A stretch of 5,492 nucleotides of DNA from Escherichia phage lillemer. The stretch lies in the sequence record MN850599.1; one strand, 5' to 3'. The notes below the pieces were generated by a model. It made no database searches. It was given only the letters and a program-made list of their open reading frames with translations, and was not told the DNA's origin. This document shows positions 1 to 5,492 of the stretch, piece after piece. Numbering within the stretch: position 1 is the first letter of the stretch; each line of letters opens with the position of its first letter. The position numbers were made by a program, and so were the translations under genes.

Positions 1-845
1 CCATGTTCCGGTACGAAGAAGCGAGGAACAGAGTGACGGAATGTTTGCTGGACGCGGCCAGAGAATTGACCTAATGAAGTTTGGTCAGTGCCGTCGATAT
101 CATAGCCAGAAGCCCAGAAGTTAGAGCGCATAAGCAGAAGAGGACGATTATCAGCGTCATAGTGAGTTTTGCCACCGAACGAAGAGATTACGTCACGGTA
201 ACGTTGCATGAAGTAGTCACGCTCTTGGTCAGTGTGAAGTTGGGCGTAGGCAGCTTGAAGACCCATGATATCAATGGAGGTAGCGCCAGTAGTCATAGCG
301 CGGGTAATTTCCGTTTGAGGAGGAAGAGGCGCAGACCAGATGTTTTTTAAGTGACAGCAGCGGAAGCCGTGACGACGGTCGTCGTCGTTTAAGTTAGATG
401 GGTTTGCCTCAGTACGGTCAGCCATCCAAGGAGCTTTGAAGTAGTTATTGTAAATATTGAGATAGCCTTGGTGCAGGAACTTGGGAACCTTGCCGTCAGC
501 AGAAGGGATTACACCAAGATAAGAAGCACTGTCGACATATTCGCCAGTGGTTACAGGGTTAAGAGATGCGGCAGCAACGCCAGTTTTCATAAATTGAATC
601 CATGCATCGCCATAGATATGACGGTGTGGAATGTAGAAAGTGAAGTAATCAACAGTTGAGTCAATAGCCAGGCCGCGACGCAGAGGGGATAAGCGTAAAG
701 CACCAACAGCGTCAAGCTGGAAAGAATCACCAGCGATAACAGGGGTCCATGATGCGACTTTAAGGCGACCAATAGCGCCAGTGTTGAAGACCAGATGTGA
801 TAAATCAATTGCATCACGAGAGGCAGAAGTTTGAACATTAGACAT
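1..845 (-). CDS. F: Major capsid protein F, N-terminal segment (partial; starts at ATG 845..843 and runs off the window start)
   Basis: ATG at 845..843 preceded by AAGGA about 8 nt upstream. Hand translation gives MSNVQTSASRDAIDLSHLVFN..., resembling recalled phiX174 F N-terminus (MSNIQTGAERMPHDLSHLGF). Codons at the window start (plus 3..35) read ...HSVPRFFVPEH, which abuts the start of the C-terminal segment at the other window end. Not in the ORF track, consistent with a frame that has no stop before the window edge. Only the two ends were translated by hand, not the interior. Confidence 0.85.
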   Translation of the reverse strand, partial: MSNVQTSASRDAIDLSHLVFNTGAIGRLKVASWTPVIAGDSFQLDAVGALRLSPLRRGLAIDSTVDYFTFYIPHRHIYGDAWIQFMKTGVAAASLNPVTTGEYVDSASYLGVIPSADGKVPKFLHQGYLNIYNNYFKAPWMADRTEANPSNLNDDDRRHGFRCCHLKNIWSAPLPPQTEITRAMTTGATSIDIMGLQAAYAQLHTDQERDYFMQRYRDVISSFGGKTHYDADNRPLLLMRSNFWASGYDIDGTDQTSLGQFSGRVQQTFRHSVPRFFVPEH

Positions 846-863
846 TTTATATCCTTAAATAGA

Positions 864-881
864 GTGGGACCGTGGTCCCAC
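864..881 (-). terminator. J-F intergenic stem-loop (7-bp GC-rich stem GTGGGAC/GTCCCAC, 4-nt loop) followed by T-rich tract; candidate T_J-like terminator or mRNA-stabilising hairpin
   Basis: Viral strand reads TAA(J stop)-CCTTCTAT-GTGGGAC-CACG-GTCCCAC-TCTATTTAAGGATATAAA-ATG(F). Inverted repeat seen directly. A GC-rich hairpin occupies the same J-F position in phiX174 (recalled). Confidence 0.55.
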
Positions 882-889
882 ATAGAAGG

Positions 890-976
890 TTAGAATTGTG
901 AGCCGCCAACGTACCAGAGGCGGGAGCCTTTCTTGTTGCCAGCGGAGCCGCGGCGATATGATTTGCCTTTAGCCAT
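890..976 (-). CDS. J: Small basic DNA-binding/packaging protein J (28 aa)
   Basis: Hand translation from ATG 976..974: MAKGKSYRRGSAGNKKGSRLWYVGGSQF, stop TAA at 892..890. Very basic, C-terminal RLWYVGG motif matches recalled phiX174/G4 J. Start overlaps D stop as TAATG. AAGGA SD about 10 nt upstream. Confidence 0.85.
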   Translation of the reverse strand: MAKGKSYRRGSAGNKKGSRLWYVGGSQF

Positions 977-1256
977 TACATGATTCCTTGTGCACGGAGT
1001 TTAGCGCGGATGTTGTCTTCGGCACCTTCGAGGACGTCTTTACAGCCGGCGCGGACACGGAGAACGAAAGCGAAGAGTTCGGAAGCCTTAACTGGGGATT
1101 CAACGCCATTGACGATGTTTTCAGTAAATTCGGCTCCTTCCATGATGAGACAAGCGGTCTGGGTGTTGACCGGATGAACGTAGTAAGCGATAACAGCAGA
1201 AATAAATTCAACAGGAGCAGGAAAGCGAGGATACCCGACAAAGTCCAGTGTTCCAT
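969..1256 (-). CDS. E: Lysis protein E (95 aa), embedded in gene D in a different frame
   Basis: Track ORF 969..1313, trimmed to internal ATG at 1256..1254 (GAGG about 11 nt upstream). Product MEHWTLSGILAFLLLLNLFLLLSLTTFIRSTPRPLVSSWKEPNLLK... has an N-terminal hydrophobic helix and an RP(L)VSSWK segment like recalled phiX174 E. Lies wholly within D (+ J start) in an alternative frame, as in phiX174. Confidence 0.85.
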   Translation of the reverse strand: MEHWTLSGILAFLLLLNLFLLLSLTTFIRSTPRPLVSSWKEPNLLKTSSMALNPQLRLPNSSLSFSVSAPAVKTSSKVPKTTSALNSVHKESCNG

Positions 1257-1431
1257 ATACGCAGGCCTCGACAGCGCGGCGGGCGCGGGAGCGGTCAGTA
1301 GCAATCCAGACACGGTCGCCAGTTAAGAATTCGAAGTCGTCTTCGGTAAGGTCGAGGACGGATGAGGCTTGAATCATTTTGATAGAAGCGATTGCAGTTT
1401 GAAAGGCTACAGCAGATTCGTTGGAGTTCAT
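976..1431 (-). CDS. D: External scaffolding protein D (151 aa)
   Basis: Track ORF 976..1431. Strong similarity to recalled phiX174 D (ASIKxIQASxVLDLTEDDF, VWIATDRSRARR, YGTLDFVGYPRFPAPVEF, YYVHPVN, ACLIMEGAEFTEN). ATG 1431..1429 overlaps C stop (ATGA). AAGGA SD about 9 nt upstream. Confidence 0.93.
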   Translation of the reverse strand: MNSNESAVAFQTAIASIKMIQASSVLDLTEDDFEFLTGDRVWIATDRSRARRAVEACVYGTLDFVGYPRFPAPVEFISAVIAYYVHPVNTQTACLIMEGAEFTENIVNGVESPVKASELFAFVLRVRAGCKDVLEGAEDNIRAKLRAQGIM

Positions 1432-1688
1432 TTAGTATTTCCTTTGTTGTTACGGGTTGTTTGTGTGGGGGATAGTACCCCCCGTTCGATTAATATGTCA
1501 ACTAAAGATTGTTTGCCATGTACGAAATGTTCTTCGTAGCGGAACCAGTCCTTAAGAAGAGCGCCCAGCATGTTAAGCCATTTTTCCTCGTCAAGGGCAT
1601 CAGCCTTAGAGAGTATTGCGAGTTGATGGCGAAAGGTTGAGAAGTAAGACCCTCTCGAGCTCTTTAGTGCAAGATTGAATTTCTTCAT
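1428..1688 (-). CDS. C: Protein C (86 aa; switch from dsDNA replication to ssDNA synthesis/packaging)
   Basis: Track ORF 1428..1706 begins at a GTG; the ATG at 1688..1686 gives [58 protein letters not shown]..., closely matching recalled phiX174 C. The ATG overlaps the A stop (ATGA), as in phiX174. Confidence 0.88.
1472..1501 (-). promoter_or_regulatory. Candidate sigma70 promoter pD (TTGACA-N18-TACTAT) inside gene C, upstream of D
   Basis: Viral strand: TTGACA (plus 1501..1496), 18-nt spacer, TACTAT (plus 1477..1472), about 40 nt upstream of D ATG. Same hexamers and position as the phiX174 pD promoter as recalled. Confidence 0.6.
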
Positions 1689-1770
1689 TTTCCACCAGCA
1701 GTCCACTTCGATTTAATTCGTAAGCAAGCAGTAGTAATTCCTGCAGCAGCAAGGTAGTTTTTGGTTTCAT
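1606..1770 (-). CDS. K: Protein K (54 aa), overlapping the A/C junction in a third frame
   Basis: Hand translation from ATG 1770..1768: [54 protein letters not shown], stop TAA 1608..1606. ELLLL(V/A)YELNRSGLL and LSPSTN-like segments match recalled phiX174 K. ATG overlaps B stop (TGATG). Too short to appear in the ORF track. Confidence 0.7.
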
Positions 1771-2710
1771 CAGAAGTATCCATGAGTGTTAATTTCTGAG
1801 TCATTGAAGCGATAAAATTCTGCAGGTTGGACGCTCCGATTGTTCGGGTCAAATCGCGCATAAATTTTAGCAGATTGGTCGTTACAGGTTGCGCCGCCAA
1901 AACGGTCGCGACAGATGCTTTTGCCAGCCTCGATTTCAGCTCTTTCTTGGCGTTCTGCTTCAAGACGTTGTTGAACGGGGTCGAGTCGTAGCCCAGCTGG
2001 GTCAGTTGGATCAATGTTTCGGCGGTCAGGTGCGCCATTGATAACATCTTCATCCCGAAGTTGCGGGACATTCGGATTCTGAATAGTTTGGTTGGTAGTA
2101 GAGATATTTTGGTCTTGAGTGATGCGTTCCATTCTTTATTCCCTAGGCCTTTTGCGGCCATATCAATATCAGATTTTTTGTTAACGTATTTAGCGACGTA
2201 GAAGCCGACAGCCATATACGAGGTAGCTTTAAGGGGTTCACCCTTTGAGTCGACAGGCCAGAGCCAGCCAGCGCGCGAGAATGCGTCTTGGGAGTACCGG
2301 ACTGCGATGGGCATAGAATAGCCATAGGGCCATGTGTTTTGCAAGGAGTTTATTTGGCGATTAGTGCGTACCAGCTTACCGAAGTTAGGGTCACGAGAAC
2401 CCATAGGAAGTGTGCGCATAAGGTGCACTGCGTGGAAATGTAGACGACCGTGCTGTGTGCCATACTCTGGAACACAAAAATACTGATAGCAGTCGGCGTG
2501 TGAGTCATTAGCAGAGCGACCCTCGGCAGCAAGCACCATACGACCAATATCACGGAAGTAGTCACGAAGAGCATTGGGATTATCATAGAAAGCCTGTATG
2601 CGGTCATCGGCCAGAGTAAGAGTGTCGAATACAACATACCAGCCGTCAGTGTGGGCTTGGCGCATGGCATTCATCAGTCTTTGAACGGTAAAGCCACGGC
2701 GTGATTTCAT
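1685..2710 (-). CDS. A*: A* (in-frame internal initiation product of gene A, 341 aa)
   Basis: Internal ATG at 2710..2708 (A codon 204, MKSRRGF...) with GAGG about 9 nt upstream; same position and context as the phiX174 A* start as recalled. Expression not verifiable from sequence. Confidence 0.55.
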
Positions 2711-3319
2711 GGTGGATTCCTCAAGCATTTTTGAGCATTCATCCTTAATACCCTTCGCCTTTGCATAGTTGTAATCGGCGCGGATATCTTTAAGGGGTCG
2801 TTTAGATACGAGCTGTGACCAATGGGTGTTAACAGGTTTATCATAAAGCATACTCCAGTGGGCGTTACCTTTAGGGGTGTGGTCTATAGTGTTATTAATA
2901 TCAAGTTGTCCGAGCACGTCGTAACATTCTTGCAGTTCGTCAGCAATGGCGATGACTGTAAGGCGGTAATCCTCACCGATTTCATCAGAGAGGCGTAATT
3001 CGTTAGGGGCAGTTTGAGGGATTGGTTTACGGCGAATGATATCGTCCAGGGTAAATGTGTCAGGGTATTGAATGAGTTTTGGGTTGTGTCCTTTTTGATG
3101 GGCACGATAGGCAATAGTAGTAGCCAGTTGAGAATTTGGGTTCATGTAGAAGTCTTGAGTTTCAGGGCAGCGACGGATTCCGTTTGTCCAGTGAGCAAGA
3201 ATTTCTTCGAGTAATTTTACGCGAGTGTTTACCTGTTTCCAGATACGGAGGTTTGGGGATTGCGTGAGTGTCGACATGCCAGCGGCTTCGACGAGGGGTT
3301 TGATGAGTTCTACAGACAT
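1685..3319 (-). CDS. A: Replication initiation protein A (HUH rolling-circle endonuclease, 544 aa)
   Basis: Track ORF 1685..3319. HUH motif GRLHFHAVH (H294/H296) and catalytic tyrosine pair [10 protein letters not shown] (Y374/Y378, codons at plus 2198..2200 and 2186..2188). C-terminal two-thirds closely match recalled phiX174 gpA. ATG 3319..3317 with GGAGG SD. Contains the 30-nt origin. Confidence 0.95.
1770..2132 (-). CDS. B: Internal scaffolding protein B (120 aa), encoded inside gene A in a different frame
   Basis: Track ORF 1770..2132: ...PQLRDE..., EAERxxRxEIEAGKS, RFGGATC(N/D)DxSAxIYARFD, [12 protein letters not shown]-terminus match recalled phiX174 B. ATG 2132..2130. Stop TGA overlaps K ATG. 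Confidence 0.9.
2315..2344 (-). promoter_or_regulatory. Candidate promoter pB (TTGCAA-N18-TATTCT) inside gene A, upstream of B
   Basis: Viral strand: CTCC-TTGCAA-AACACATGGCCCTATGGC-TATTCT-ATGCCCATCGCAGT. Positionally equivalent to the recalled phiX174 region TTGCAAAATACGTGGCCTTATGGTTACAGTATGCCCATCGCAGT, about 190 nt upstream of B. Hexamers are weak; assignment is tentative. Confidence 0.35.
2879..2908 (-). other. Viral (+) strand origin of rolling-circle replication (30-nt gpA recognition/nick site) inside gene A
   Basis: Reverse complement of plus 2879..2908 is CAACTTGATATTAATAACACTATAGACCAC, identical to the conserved phiX174/G4 origin as recalled. Expected nick between G and A of CAACTTG/ATATT, i.e. 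between plus 2902 and 2901 on the '-' strand. Encodes [10 protein letters not shown] of protein A. Confidence 0.85.
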
Positions 3320-3324
3320 GTTAA

Positions 3325-3346
3325 AGCCTCCGTGTTAATGGAGGCT
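3325..3346 (-). terminator. H-A intergenic stem-loop (AGCCTCC / GGAGGCT, 8-nt loop) containing the gene A Shine-Dalgarno; T_H-like terminator / 5' mRNA hairpin
   Basis: Viral strand: AGCCTCC-ATTAACAC-GGAGGCT-TTAAC-ATG(A). 7-bp stem seen directly. phiX174 has an analogous hairpin (GCCTCCAAATCTTGGAGGC) immediately upstream of the A start (recalled). Confidence 0.6.
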
Positions 3347-3376
3347 ATTAGATAGGATTTATGATGTGATTGTCAA
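3347..3376 (-). promoter_or_regulatory. Candidate sigma70 promoter pA (TTGACA-N18-TCTAAT) between H and A
   Basis: Viral strand: TAG(H stop)C-TTGACA-ATCACATCATAAATCCTA-TCTAAT, immediately followed by the hairpin. Perfect -35 hexamer (plus 3376..3371), 5/6 match at -10 (plus 3352..3347). Same place as phiX174 pA (recalled). Confidence 0.5.
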
Positions 3377-3377
3377 G

Positions 3378-4415
3378 CTATTTGCGAGACATGTTGGAGC
3401 CTACTCCGTCGGCTTTACCATCTTTCCAATAATTGTTCCAAGTGTCAGACACAGCTTTATCAACGCCGCGAAAATAATCAACAATACCAGAAGATGCGTC
3501 ACTAATGACATTTGATACGTCCTTGGCGGTTTTACCGACCTGTGATGATGCATAACGTGAGTTTTGGACTTCCTGTTTTGAGCGGTCAGTTTCTACATGG
3601 GTGCGTTCAGTGTTAGCACGAACAGCATCAATATCAGCGCCGACTTTTCGAGTAAGTTCTTGGATTTGAGCGTTAGTAAAGTGTTGTCCTGAGGTTTGAG
3701 CCTGAGTAAGCATTTGGCGCATAATTTCAGAAGTTTGTTGTTGTTTGGTGAGGCTTGTGTTTTCGAGAATAGCGCCAACACGTGACATAGATTCCTTTTG
3801 GTTGTATTGGAGCATTTCGTTTTGAGCATATACAGAGTCCTTAGTATTCATGCGTGATGTGGCAGACTGGATACCAGCGATATCCTTTTGGGTGTCGTTT
3901 TGCATCTTAGCGATTTTGACTTGGTTGTCAAGTTGCATTTTGATTAGTTGTTTTTGGTTTTCAAAACCAGCGTCAACCATACCAGCAGAGGAAGCACCAG
4001 CGCCAGCGCGTTCCCACGGGTTGAGCTCGGGGAACGCAGAAGCAAGGTAATCTTTAGTATCCTTGCCTTTATCAGCAGCAGATTTGCCACCGAGGCCAAT
4101 TTTGTTAAGAAGAGCTTGTTGAACAGCAGAGCCGCCAGCTTGTAGAGTACCATCGAGAAGTCCTTTGCCAGCATCCTTAAGTGAGGAGACGGCAGATTCG
4201 GTAAATGTAGGAGCCGCCTGATCAGGGCTAGGCGGGTTAGGTCCCTGCATAACAGATTGAATACCTGCATTGTCAGCAGAGATAGTAGTTTCAGGGGTAG
4301 CGAAGAGGCCTTGTCCAGGAGTTGAAGGGGCGGCTTGTTTATTGCCGCCCATCAGTTTGGACATTAGACCGCCAGCAAGAGTAGAGGCGATGCCGCCAGC
4401 GATTGCACCAAACAT
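3378..4415 (-). CDS. H: DNA pilot / minor spike protein H (345 aa)
   Basis: Track ORF 3378..4415. N-terminus [19 protein letters not shown], central Gln-rich heptad region ([22 protein letters not shown]...[10 protein letters not shown]...) and C-terminus DTWNN(Y/F)WKDGKADG(V/I)GSN(M/L)SRK match recalled phiX174 H. ATG 4415..4413 with AAGGA SD spanning the G stop codon. Confidence 0.95.
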
Positions 4416-4424
4416 AGAGATTCC

Positions 4425-4949
4425 TTATTTGAGAGGTTGCAGAGTTGTGATTTCTTGGTCAACCTGATTAATTGAGATGGAGCCGTACACAGTATCGGCG
4501 ACAAATGATTTCGCAATAAGGGCAATACCTACATAAACAGGATTGCCAGAGCGAGAAAGAGTAGAGACAGTAACGCAGTCCTTAACGGACAGAGTAGTAT
4601 CAGATGATTTAAATTCCAACGGATAATAAGTAACCGCAGAGGCGGGGATAGCCGTTGGGACAGTAGCAGATTCAAACCGACAAAGAACAGGTACGAGGCT
4701 GCCGATAGTAGAAAGTGAGGCAGCAACAGAAACGACCTGATTGTCGGTATGAGAGGAGTTGTCGATAGCGACAACAGCAGAGATACCGCCTGGAGAAGTC
4801 AGGGCGGTAGTAGTTAGATTCACAAATAGATTGTCACGCGCAACGGTTGGCGTATTAATAATAGGAGCCAACGCGGCGGGAGTGACAGCCTTTGTGATAG
4901 TAGTAGTAAATTGAGGAGAATTGTGTTTAGTGACAAAGTTCTGGAACAT
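4425..4949 (-). CDS. G: Major spike protein G (174 aa)
   Basis: Track ORF 4425..4997 begins at a TTG. The ATG at 4949..4947 is preceded by TAAGGA about 9 nt upstream and gives MFQNFVTKHNS..., matching the recalled phiX174 G N-terminus (MFQTFISRHNS). VVSV, RFES..VP, VKDCVT, NxVYVG and C-terminal LQPLK are also conserved. Confidence 0.9.
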   Translation of the reverse strand: MFQNFVTKHNSPQFTTTITKAVTPAALAPIINTPTVARDNLFVNLTTTALTSPGGISAVVAIDNSSHTDNQVVSVAASLSTIGSLVPVLCRFESATVPTAIPASAVTYYPLEFKSSDTTLSVKDCVTVSTLSRSGNPVYVGIALIAKSFVADTVYGSISINQVDQEITTLQPLK

Positions 4950-5000
4950 TTGAGTAGTCCTTATAGTTAGGTAGCTAACGCGCTTGCGCTTGTTCAACCT

Positions 5001-5036
5001 GACAGGGGGCGAAAAATTAAAATTTTTCCCCCTGTC
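5001..5036 (-). other. F-G intergenic long hairpin (9-bp GACAGGGGG/CCCCCTGTC stem plus inner A5/T5 stem); candidate complementary-strand origin / primosome assembly site or structural terminator
   Basis: Plus 5001..5036 gacagggggcgaaaaattaaaatttttccccctgtc is an imperfect inverted repeat. The phiX174 F-G spacer has an analogous AAAAATTTTAATTTTT-centred hairpin (recalled), and this spacer hosts the PriA site in phiX174 and the primase origin in G4. Not followed by a U-tract, so not a canonical intrinsic terminator. Confidence 0.55.
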
Positions 5037-5048
5037 ACGTTATAGGCT

Positions 5049-5492
5049 TTAAGAAGTCATGATGCTATCGCGTGTGGTCGGGATATGTCGATATACAGTG
5101 ACATTGTATTTAGCCTGAGCATTCCAGTGAGTTAATTGAAGTGATTGGAAGCATTCGTCGTATTTTTTATGGTCAATCAGTACACGGTTTTCCATGTTGC
5201 CAGTTGGACCATTTTGGATGAACGGGAAGCCTTGAAGGTTGTGATATTGTCCATCAACGTAAGAAGGATGATAGCGATACCATTGCCCTTCGGCAATTTT
5301 GATTTTTTCAGTAGAGCCAGCAGCGCCACGGAAGAGAGTTTTCATTTCGATTTCGCGAGGCGGTAAGTTACCGTAAAGAGTTGGATCACCCGCAAGGTCA
5401 GTATAGTTTAGTGCGCCTTTGCCGACGAGATAGTGAGTTTCCTCAGTGCAGGTAGGCGGGAAGCGTACGAGTTGAAGAGTCATAATAACGCC
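5049..5492 (-). CDS. F: Major capsid protein F, C-terminal segment (partial; 5' end of this segment runs off the window end)
   Basis: Track ORF 5049..5483 (MTLQLVRFPP...YRHIPTTRDSIMTS) matches the recalled phiX174 F C-terminus (TMFTLALVRFPP...TVYRNLPTTRDSIMTS). Frame stays open to 5492 (upstream codons G-V-I). Stop TAA at 5051..5049. Confidence 0.92.
   Translation of the reverse strand, partial: GVIMTLQLVRFPPTCTEETHYLVGKGALNYTDLAGDPTLYGNLPPREIEMKTLFRGAAGSTEKIKIAEGQWYRYHPSYVDGQYHNLQGFPFIQNGPTGNMENRVLIDHKKYDECFQSLQLTHWNAQAKYNVTVYRHIPTTRDSIMTS

Follow-up and report, generated by a model that had tools for sequence, protein, structure and literature searches.

A probable phiX174-type primosome assembly site in the F-G spacer of Escherichia phage lillemer

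The stretch of DNA analysed here, hereafter the window, is the complete genome of Escherichia phage lillemer (MN850599.1; 5492 bases), a Bullavirinae (phiX174-like) microvirus deposited as its reverse complement. All of its genes lie on the window minus strand, which is therefore the viral strand, that is, the strand that is packaged and has the sense of the mRNA (Table 1). The nearest relatives are the K-12-infecting wastewater phages Lilledu (98.1%), Lilleto, Lilleput, MG1, and SECphi17, and ID2, G4, and ID18 share about 80% identity with the window across most of the genome. The spacer between genes F and G is the sole non-coding stretch of the genome with room for an origin; the J-F, G-H, and H-A gaps contain small hairpins only. 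The limits and length of the F-G spacer, as given in an earlier sequence-only reading of this DNA, agree with flanking genes that belong to the Pfam families Phage_F and Phage_G. An AAGGA motif close to the start of gene G lies outside the element described below and is likely the ribosome-binding site of that gene.

Table 1. Genes, spacers, and structural features of the lillemer window (window coordinates).
Feature	Position	Strand	Remarks
Gene A	3319..1685	-	
Gene D	1431..976	-	
Gene J	976..890	-	
Gene F (major coat protein)	845..1, joined with 5492..5049 across the window ends	-	Pfam Phage_F, E 5e-39
Gene G (major spike protein)	4949..4425	-	Pfam Phage_G, E 3e-30
Gene H	4415..3378	-	
F-G intergenic spacer, 99 nt	4950..5048	-	F stop 5051..5049, G start 4949..4947
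Other non-coding gaps	J-F 846..889 (44 nt), G-H 4416..4424 (9 nt), H-A 3320..3377 (58 nt)		
AAGGA, likely gene G ribosome-binding site	4958..4962	-	8 nt before ATG; read from sequence
Hairpin 2, AACAAGCGCAAGCGCGTT	4977..4994	-	counterpart of the phiX174 2353..2373 hairpin
Hairpin 1, 46 nt, AACGTGACAGGGGGAAAAATTTTAATTTTTCGCCCCCTGTCAGGTT	4996..5041	-	DNA fold; counterpart of phiX174 2308..2351
36-nt core inverted repeat	5001..5036	-	9-bp G/C-rich outer stem, CG bulge, A5/T5 inner stem
CG bulge in 3' arm of hairpin 1	5010..5011	-	
AT-rich apex AAAAATTTTAATTTTT	5012..5027	-	central AAATTTTAATTT invariant in 4/4 phage lineages
Covariance-model match, both hairpins	4974..5041	-	93.6 bits, E 6e-20; plus strand 37.7 bits

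Within this spacer the sequence-only reading had picked out an imperfect inverted repeat of 36 nt with a G/C-rich outer stem and an A5/T5 inner stem, and the repeat can be read directly from the letters (GACAGGGGGCGAAAAATTAAAATTTTTCCCCCTGTC on the plus strand, GACAGGGGGAAAAATTTTAATTTTTCGCCCCCTGTC on the viral strand). The structure of which it forms the core, here called hairpin 1, is larger, as it is extended by an AAC/GTT base and a G.G mismatch. As DNA, the spacer folds at -20.7 kcal/mol against -9.4 +/- 2.2 kcal/mol for shuffled versions (z -5.0; 0 of 200 as good), and in a 60-nt sliding fold of the viral strand the hairpin region is the most stable local single-stranded fold in the genome (-16.6 kcal/mol, z -5.0). 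The same sliding fold, taken over the whole viral strand, brought up no better origin-like structure elsewhere, such as the sequence-only reading had named as a refutation of its proposal. At 46 nt, stable in single-stranded DNA and with a structure kept in evolution, hairpin 1 corresponds to the hairpin of about 44 nt that marks a phiX174-type site, and it likewise lies on the viral strand and in the F-G spacer. Natural variants close its imperfections: in Lilleto (3762-3862) the 5' arm carries an inserted CG that pairs with the CG bulge to give a perfect hairpin, with a DNA fold of -27.2 kcal/mol as compared with -19.2 kcal/mol for the window, and in the metagenomic relative OBLN01002562 (4907-4974) the mismatched G is changed to C, which closes the G.G mismatch. 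An Rfam scan of the whole window matched no family at E<=1.

A database search aligns nucleotides 5-74 of the spacer with phiX174 2305-2371 at 77-79% identity over about 70 nt, and pairwise E-values to the spacers of ID2, ID18, and PJNS002 range from 2e-9 to 4e-11. One phiX174 record annotates the 44-nt hairpin at 2308..2351 as the complementary (-) strand origin, and this hairpin is the PriA binding site, or primosome assembly site (PAS) (PMC8246471; PMC5778457; PMC4132743; bioRxiv 10.64898/2026.07.25.740675), in keeping with the earlier statement that the F-G spacer of phiX174 carries the PriA hairpin; the phiX174 substitution T2305G falls in the primosome binding site (PMC3606162). The F-G spacers extracted from 17 phages for comparison hold one homologous hairpin in four stem versions, namely those of phiX174, of the window group (the Lille phages, SECphi17, MG1, ID2, FL76, and ID204), of ID18/WA14, and of PJNS002. 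Common to the four versions are the 21-position register of the 5' arm, the AAC/GTT base with its G.G mismatch, the apex AAATTTTAATTT, and the 3' block. Stem sequence varies in the middle, but pairing is kept: of the cells in an alignment of six sequences, 98.7% are paired, and 10 pairs are changed on both sides (nine in hairpin 1, one in hairpin 2), a level of covariation reached in 0 of 500 shuffles and set against 0-2 such pairs in slid-partner controls. When phage, plasmid, and other copies are taken together (14 members), 97.2% of cells are paired, and the compensatory changes number 12 pairs and 50 cells. Homology to the phiX174 PAS and compensatory changes in the stem thus both support the sequence-only proposal that the repeat is a candidate origin of the complementary strand or a primosome site. 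When IMG/VR and JGI metagenomes were scanned by pattern for new stem variants, only ID2, ID18, phiX174, and Lille-type copies came up, along with unrelated chance matches.

The second, smaller hairpin of the element, hairpin 2, forms with the linker a near-invariant block, GGTTGAMCAAGCG..GCGCGKTAG, which in the phages reads GGTTGAMCAAGCG(C)AAGCGCGKTAG. Its one compensatory pair is A-T in the window and ID18 and C-G in phiX174 and PJNS002, and hairpin 2 is almost unchanged in the plasmid copies described below. From phiX174 through to the plasmids, hairpin 2 and the linker are the most conserved part of the element. Both stems of the phiX174 counterpart of hairpin 2 are mutationally sensitive (Wei et al. 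2026 preprint, bioRxiv 10.64898/2026.07.25.740675). In phiX174 this hairpin has been read as part of the terminator T_F; it may belong to the origin instead, because among the four phage lineages a T tract follows hairpin 2 in phiX174 only. The covariance model built over both hairpins also carries information on strand (Table 1), and so does the fold, which G-T wobbles weaken on the complementary strand; in ID18, for example, it is -16.3 kcal/mol on the viral strand versus -10.0 kcal/mol on the complementary one. The weaker fold and the lower model score on the complementary strand argue for selection on the viral or mRNA-sense strand. Covariation by itself does not separate a DNA role from an RNA role, since the mRNA has the sense of the viral strand.

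Relative to the phiX174 site, the window element retains the F-G slot, the viral strand, the register of the 5' arm, the base and its mismatch, the AAAAATTTTAATTTTT apex, the linker, and hairpin 2. The differences lie in the middle of the stem, which is TGACAGGGGG/CCCCCTGTCA in the window versus CCGAAGCGGT/GCCGCTGAGG in phiX174; in a G.A/A.G internal loop that phiX174 has and the window lacks, the window having a CG bulge; in the T tract after hairpin 2, present in phiX174 and missing from the window; and in stability, the two-hairpin element folding at -19.2 kcal/mol in the window and -15.7 kcal/mol in phiX174 (DNA parameters). Further, the phiX174-type site here sits in an otherwise G4-like genome. 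Early comparisons of n' sites drew attention to the hexamer AAGCGG. It is not found in the hairpin arm of the window, where the phiX174 5' arm GCCGAAGCGGT is replaced by GTGACAGGGGG and the GAAGCGG of phiX174 is not conserved; AAGCG occurs twice in hairpin 2 of the window, and the standing of AAGCGG as a defining feature of n' sites is doubtful. Deep mutagenesis of phiX174 indicates that many 5'-stem mutations predicted to break pairing raise fitness (bioRxiv 10.64898/2026.07.25.740675), and despite these gains from predicted disruption the window stem is more fully paired than that of phiX174.

Homologues of the element are also found on plasmids and rolling-circle replicons. In four Erwinia/Winslowiella plasmids the two-hairpin unit lies in the origin region, in a gap of ~520 bp between divergent parA and repE, with a match of 79.7% over 71 nt (E 6e-7). 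The copy on pEPIR37 (NC_022963) is at 4002-4068, and further listed copies, on Erwinia/Winslowiella/Pantoea plasmids or contigs, are at 3994-4061, 5953-6021, and 1609-1676. The arrangement is the same on an Erwinia persicina contig, where the element stands between parA and a RepE-like gene (Pfam Rep3), and on a Pantoea contig the element is upstream of parA. A Pectobacterium brasiliense contig that encodes a gpII-type rolling-circle Rep (NZ_JACDSF010000077, 5888 nt) has two copies, at 5083-5147 (minus strand) and 5681-5745 (plus strand). These two inverted copies bracket a gene for a HicB-like antitoxin; the Rep there is of the G2P/Phage_CRI type, and a TIR-domain protein is encoded on the same contig. 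The stems of the plasmid copies again covary; they are 2 bp longer, and the apex is shorter. The plasmid and rolling-circle replicons that carry the element all need host priming on single-stranded or displaced DNA, and the locations of the homologues point to a priming role at the level of DNA, which is favoured because a terminator makes no sense between divergent genes.

The origin-region location of the homologues on RepE-type Erwiniaceae plasmids is also a likeness to the PAS and single-strand initiation signals of other plasmids, such as the n' sites of ColE1/pBR322 and the site near mini-F ori2. A primosome site has been reported near ori2 of mini-F; nevertheless, no sequence links the element family to the F plasmid between 30 and 80 kb. 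A search of G4, alpha3, and this part of the F plasmid, ori2/repE included, with the covariance model reached at best 14.8 bits (E 0.31), with no credible match. A weaker relative of hairpin 1 occurs on Col(pVC) plasmids with a Rep_1 rolling-circle protein (about 134 records of 2056-2058 bp from Klebsiella, E. coli, and Enterobacter), at 1006-1070 / 3503-3567. It has the G.A/A.G internal loop seen in phiX174 and matches the Pectobacterium copy by blastn (E 6e-7). With 17 bits in the model and a strand opposite to rep, the Col(pVC) match was set aside as evidence, and a role for this relative as a single-strand origin is uncertain.

In light of its position, the element has to be weighed against the other known origin of the F-G slot. 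The G4 spacer carries a primase origin, as the sequence-only reading had stated, with a primer (3970-3997) and an origin (3970..3998) both annotated. The G4 origin is recognised by DnaG alone, not by PriA. Searches with the G4 spacer match only G4, ID11, WA5, NC19, and NC6-type phages, all of them at least 90% identical to it. The G4 F-G origin (3884-4019) and the alpha3 G-H spacer (4960-5094) are 77% identical over 133 nt, so that one primase-origin module occupies different intergenic slots in the two phages. For the window, a G4-type mechanism would mean that DnaG primase by itself recognises an SSB-phased hairpin and lays down a single primer at a CTG. It would share with the G4 origin the F-G slot and the starting of the complementary strand on SSB-coated viral DNA, and it would suit a genome that is otherwise G4-like, at about 80% over most genes. 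The sequence itself, however, has nothing in common with either primase origin: a profile of the G4 and alpha3 origins found no match in the window at E<=10 (nhmmer --max), and blastn-short with these origins found chance words of 8-9 nt only. The folds also differ, three stem-loops in the G4 spacer as against one major hairpin and two small ones (3 and 5 bp) in the window spacer. The CTG start site of G4 has no equivalent here, as the one CTG in the spacer lies within the paired 3' arm of hairpin 1 and no single-stranded CTG lies 3' of the hairpin. A G4-type origin is thus very unlikely. The sequence-only reading had held that the mechanism cannot be told from the letters, and on this point it appears too cautious: homology to the phiX174 PAS at 77-79% in the same register, with compensatory changes, and the lack of any similarity to G4 or alpha3 separate the two mechanisms, and they point to an element of the phiX174 type that would use the PriA route.

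A more serious challenge, albeit still an unlikely one, is that the hairpin acts only at the level of RNA, as the intrinsic terminator T_F and/or as a 3' stabiliser of the F mRNA, and that the complementary-strand origin lies elsewhere. The hairpin region of phiX174 is also the terminator T_F, across which transcript levels drop by 20-40% (Logel & Jaschke preprint; Wei et al. 2026, bioRxiv 10.64898/2026.07.25.740675). The window has, like phiX174 with its T_J, T_F, T_G, and T_H, a stable hairpin right after a structural gene; it is G/C-rich, directly follows the F stop codon in the position equivalent to T_F, and forms a very stable RNA fold (two-hairpin element, 68 nt, -31.3 kcal/mol; full spacer, 99 nt, -34.4 kcal/mol). 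Covariation fits either role. Unlike the intrinsic terminators of phiX174, however, neither hairpin is followed by a U/T tract (AGGTTGAACAAG after hairpin 1, AGCTACCTAAC after hairpin 2), and a consensus terminator scan that called a T_J-like hairpin at 881..864 did not call the F-G site. The terminator-only reading is weak because of this missing tract, and the confinement of the T run after hairpin 2 to phiX174 tells against it as well. In alpha3, the F-G spacer (33 nt) has only a GGCC-TTCG-GGCC hairpin followed by TTT and the origin is in G-H, an arrangement which implies that the terminator and origin functions are separable. Likewise, homologues between divergently transcribed genes on plasmids, and the lack in the window of any other origin-like structure or of a G4-type origin, are difficult to reconcile with a role in RNA alone. 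The sequence-only reading had also considered alignment to a region known only as a terminator; the phiX174 region that does align is known both as ori(-) and as T_F. As the phiX174 counterpart also bears the T_F annotation, RNA could nonetheless account for some of the conservation.

Less probable again than a G4-type origin is one primed by RNA polymerase, of the kind known from filamentous phages or the pT181 sso, in which the hairpin would mimic a promoter. The presence of the element family on replicons with a rolling-circle Rep lends this some interest, as single-strand origins of such replicons are often primed by RNA polymerase (PMC5714925). A promoter scan, however, found no pair resembling -35 and -10 elements within the hairpin, and the element is most closely related to the phiX174 site, which uses the PriA primosome (PMC5778457; PMC8246471). 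That the inverted repeat arose by chance and has no function is the least plausible reading and has a negligible probability. A perfect 9-bp inverted repeat alone is present in 21% of mononucleotide-shuffled genomes; yet the whole hairpin, with its z of -5, is the top fold of the genome, and its pairing is kept by compensatory changes in four phage lineages and several plasmids. The covariation data refute the chance reading.

Hairpins 1 and 2 together very likely constitute (at a probability of roughly 0.8) a phiX174-type primosome assembly site (n'-pas) that serves as the complementary-strand origin, a reading carried by the structure and its covariation, the phiX174 homology, the strand bias, and the lack of any G4-type origin observed here. 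PriA binding and primosome assembly on the lillemer hairpin are predicted from homology to one characterised site. The element is of a known kind and was previously unannotated in this phage lineage. In such a mechanism the viral (window minus) strand would enter the cell and be coated by SSB, with the 46-nt hairpin remaining folded; PriA would bind the hairpin and be joined by PriB and DnaT; DnaB would then be loaded from DnaB-DnaC, and DnaG would prime synthesis by the DNA polymerase III holoenzyme to convert the single-stranded DNA to the replicative form, following the steps of primosome assembly as summarised in PMC4132743. In the stem of hairpin 1 pairing alone would be needed, and the sequence-constrained parts, namely the AAC/GTT base, the AT-rich apex, and hairpin 2, would be the likely points of contact. 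The hairpin may also have a secondary role in the F mRNA, terminating transcription weakly or stabilising the 3' end, although such a role would not be required.

For lillemer, this locates the likely origin of the complementary strand and predicts that the phage relies on the restart primosome (PriA-PriB-DnaT) of its host, with a bearing on the host range and engineering of K-12-infecting microviruses. Taken together, the phage lineages and plasmid copies amount to a natural mutagenesis map of the PriA site that distinguishes positions where only pairing matters from those fixed in sequence. Such a map may guide structural work on PriA bound to DNA, and it questions the reading of the phiX174 2353-2373 hairpin as a terminator. 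More broadly, the near-invariance of hairpin 2 and the homologues on plasmids and rolling-circle replicons allow the tentative proposal, conceivable but short of probable, that the two hairpins form a module for sequence-specific single-strand initiation, one that is mobile and has been exchanged by recombination among Bullavirinae, Erwiniaceae RepE-type theta plasmids, and rolling-circle replicons. If so, the core by which the primosome site is really recognised would be hairpin 2 and not the big hairpin, and the genus Gequatrovirus would be divided into PriA-dependent and DnaG-only members.

Within the phages themselves, the F-G spacer looks like an exchanged module, or recombination cassette, when its divergence is compared with that of its surroundings. 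It is 95-97% identical to ID2 (3830-3928; compared over window 4986..5057), in contrast to 54-68% identity in the adjoining part of F and 29-53% in that of G. PJNS002 is the closest relative of the window in genes A and H (about 90%) and yet has a different stem version, and the near-identity of the spacer to that of ID2 is therefore not explained by constraint alone. Three origin layouts occur among the Bullavirinae. The phiX174, ID2, ID18, Lille, and PJNS002 groups have a PAS in F-G; the G4 group has a primase origin in that same spacer; and in the alpha3 group the primase origin is in G-H and F-G holds a bare terminator. Consequently, the phages filed with G4 form two classes that differ in origin type, and the spacer that holds the origin acts as a swappable cassette. 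A literature search whose reach did not extend to key older papers found no paper that states these three layouts and none that combines Bullavirinae with PriA.

Several minor observations concern the record and its neighbours. The window ends (1-2 and 5491-5492) are redundant by 2 nt, the viral strand reading ...AACATGG|GGCGTT... across the junction as compared with ...AACATGGCGTT... in MG1; gene F is intact (a 428-codon frame) only without the two end nucleotides, which implies a real genome of 5490 nt. A strong promoter-like site on the minus strand at 1472..1501 (TTGACA, 18 nt, TACTAT; 10/12) lies within gene C, ~40 nt upstream of the D start, and overlaps a GGGGGG...CCCCCC hairpin at about 1467..1485; it is probably the P_D promoter. 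Finally, the Lilleen record (MK629526, 5342 nt) is without 155 nt that correspond to window 4910..5064, that is, the last F codons, the whole spacer, and the first 13 G codons, and its F and G annotations overlap; the missing stretch most likely reflects a gap left in the assembly at the hairpin and not a viable deletion.
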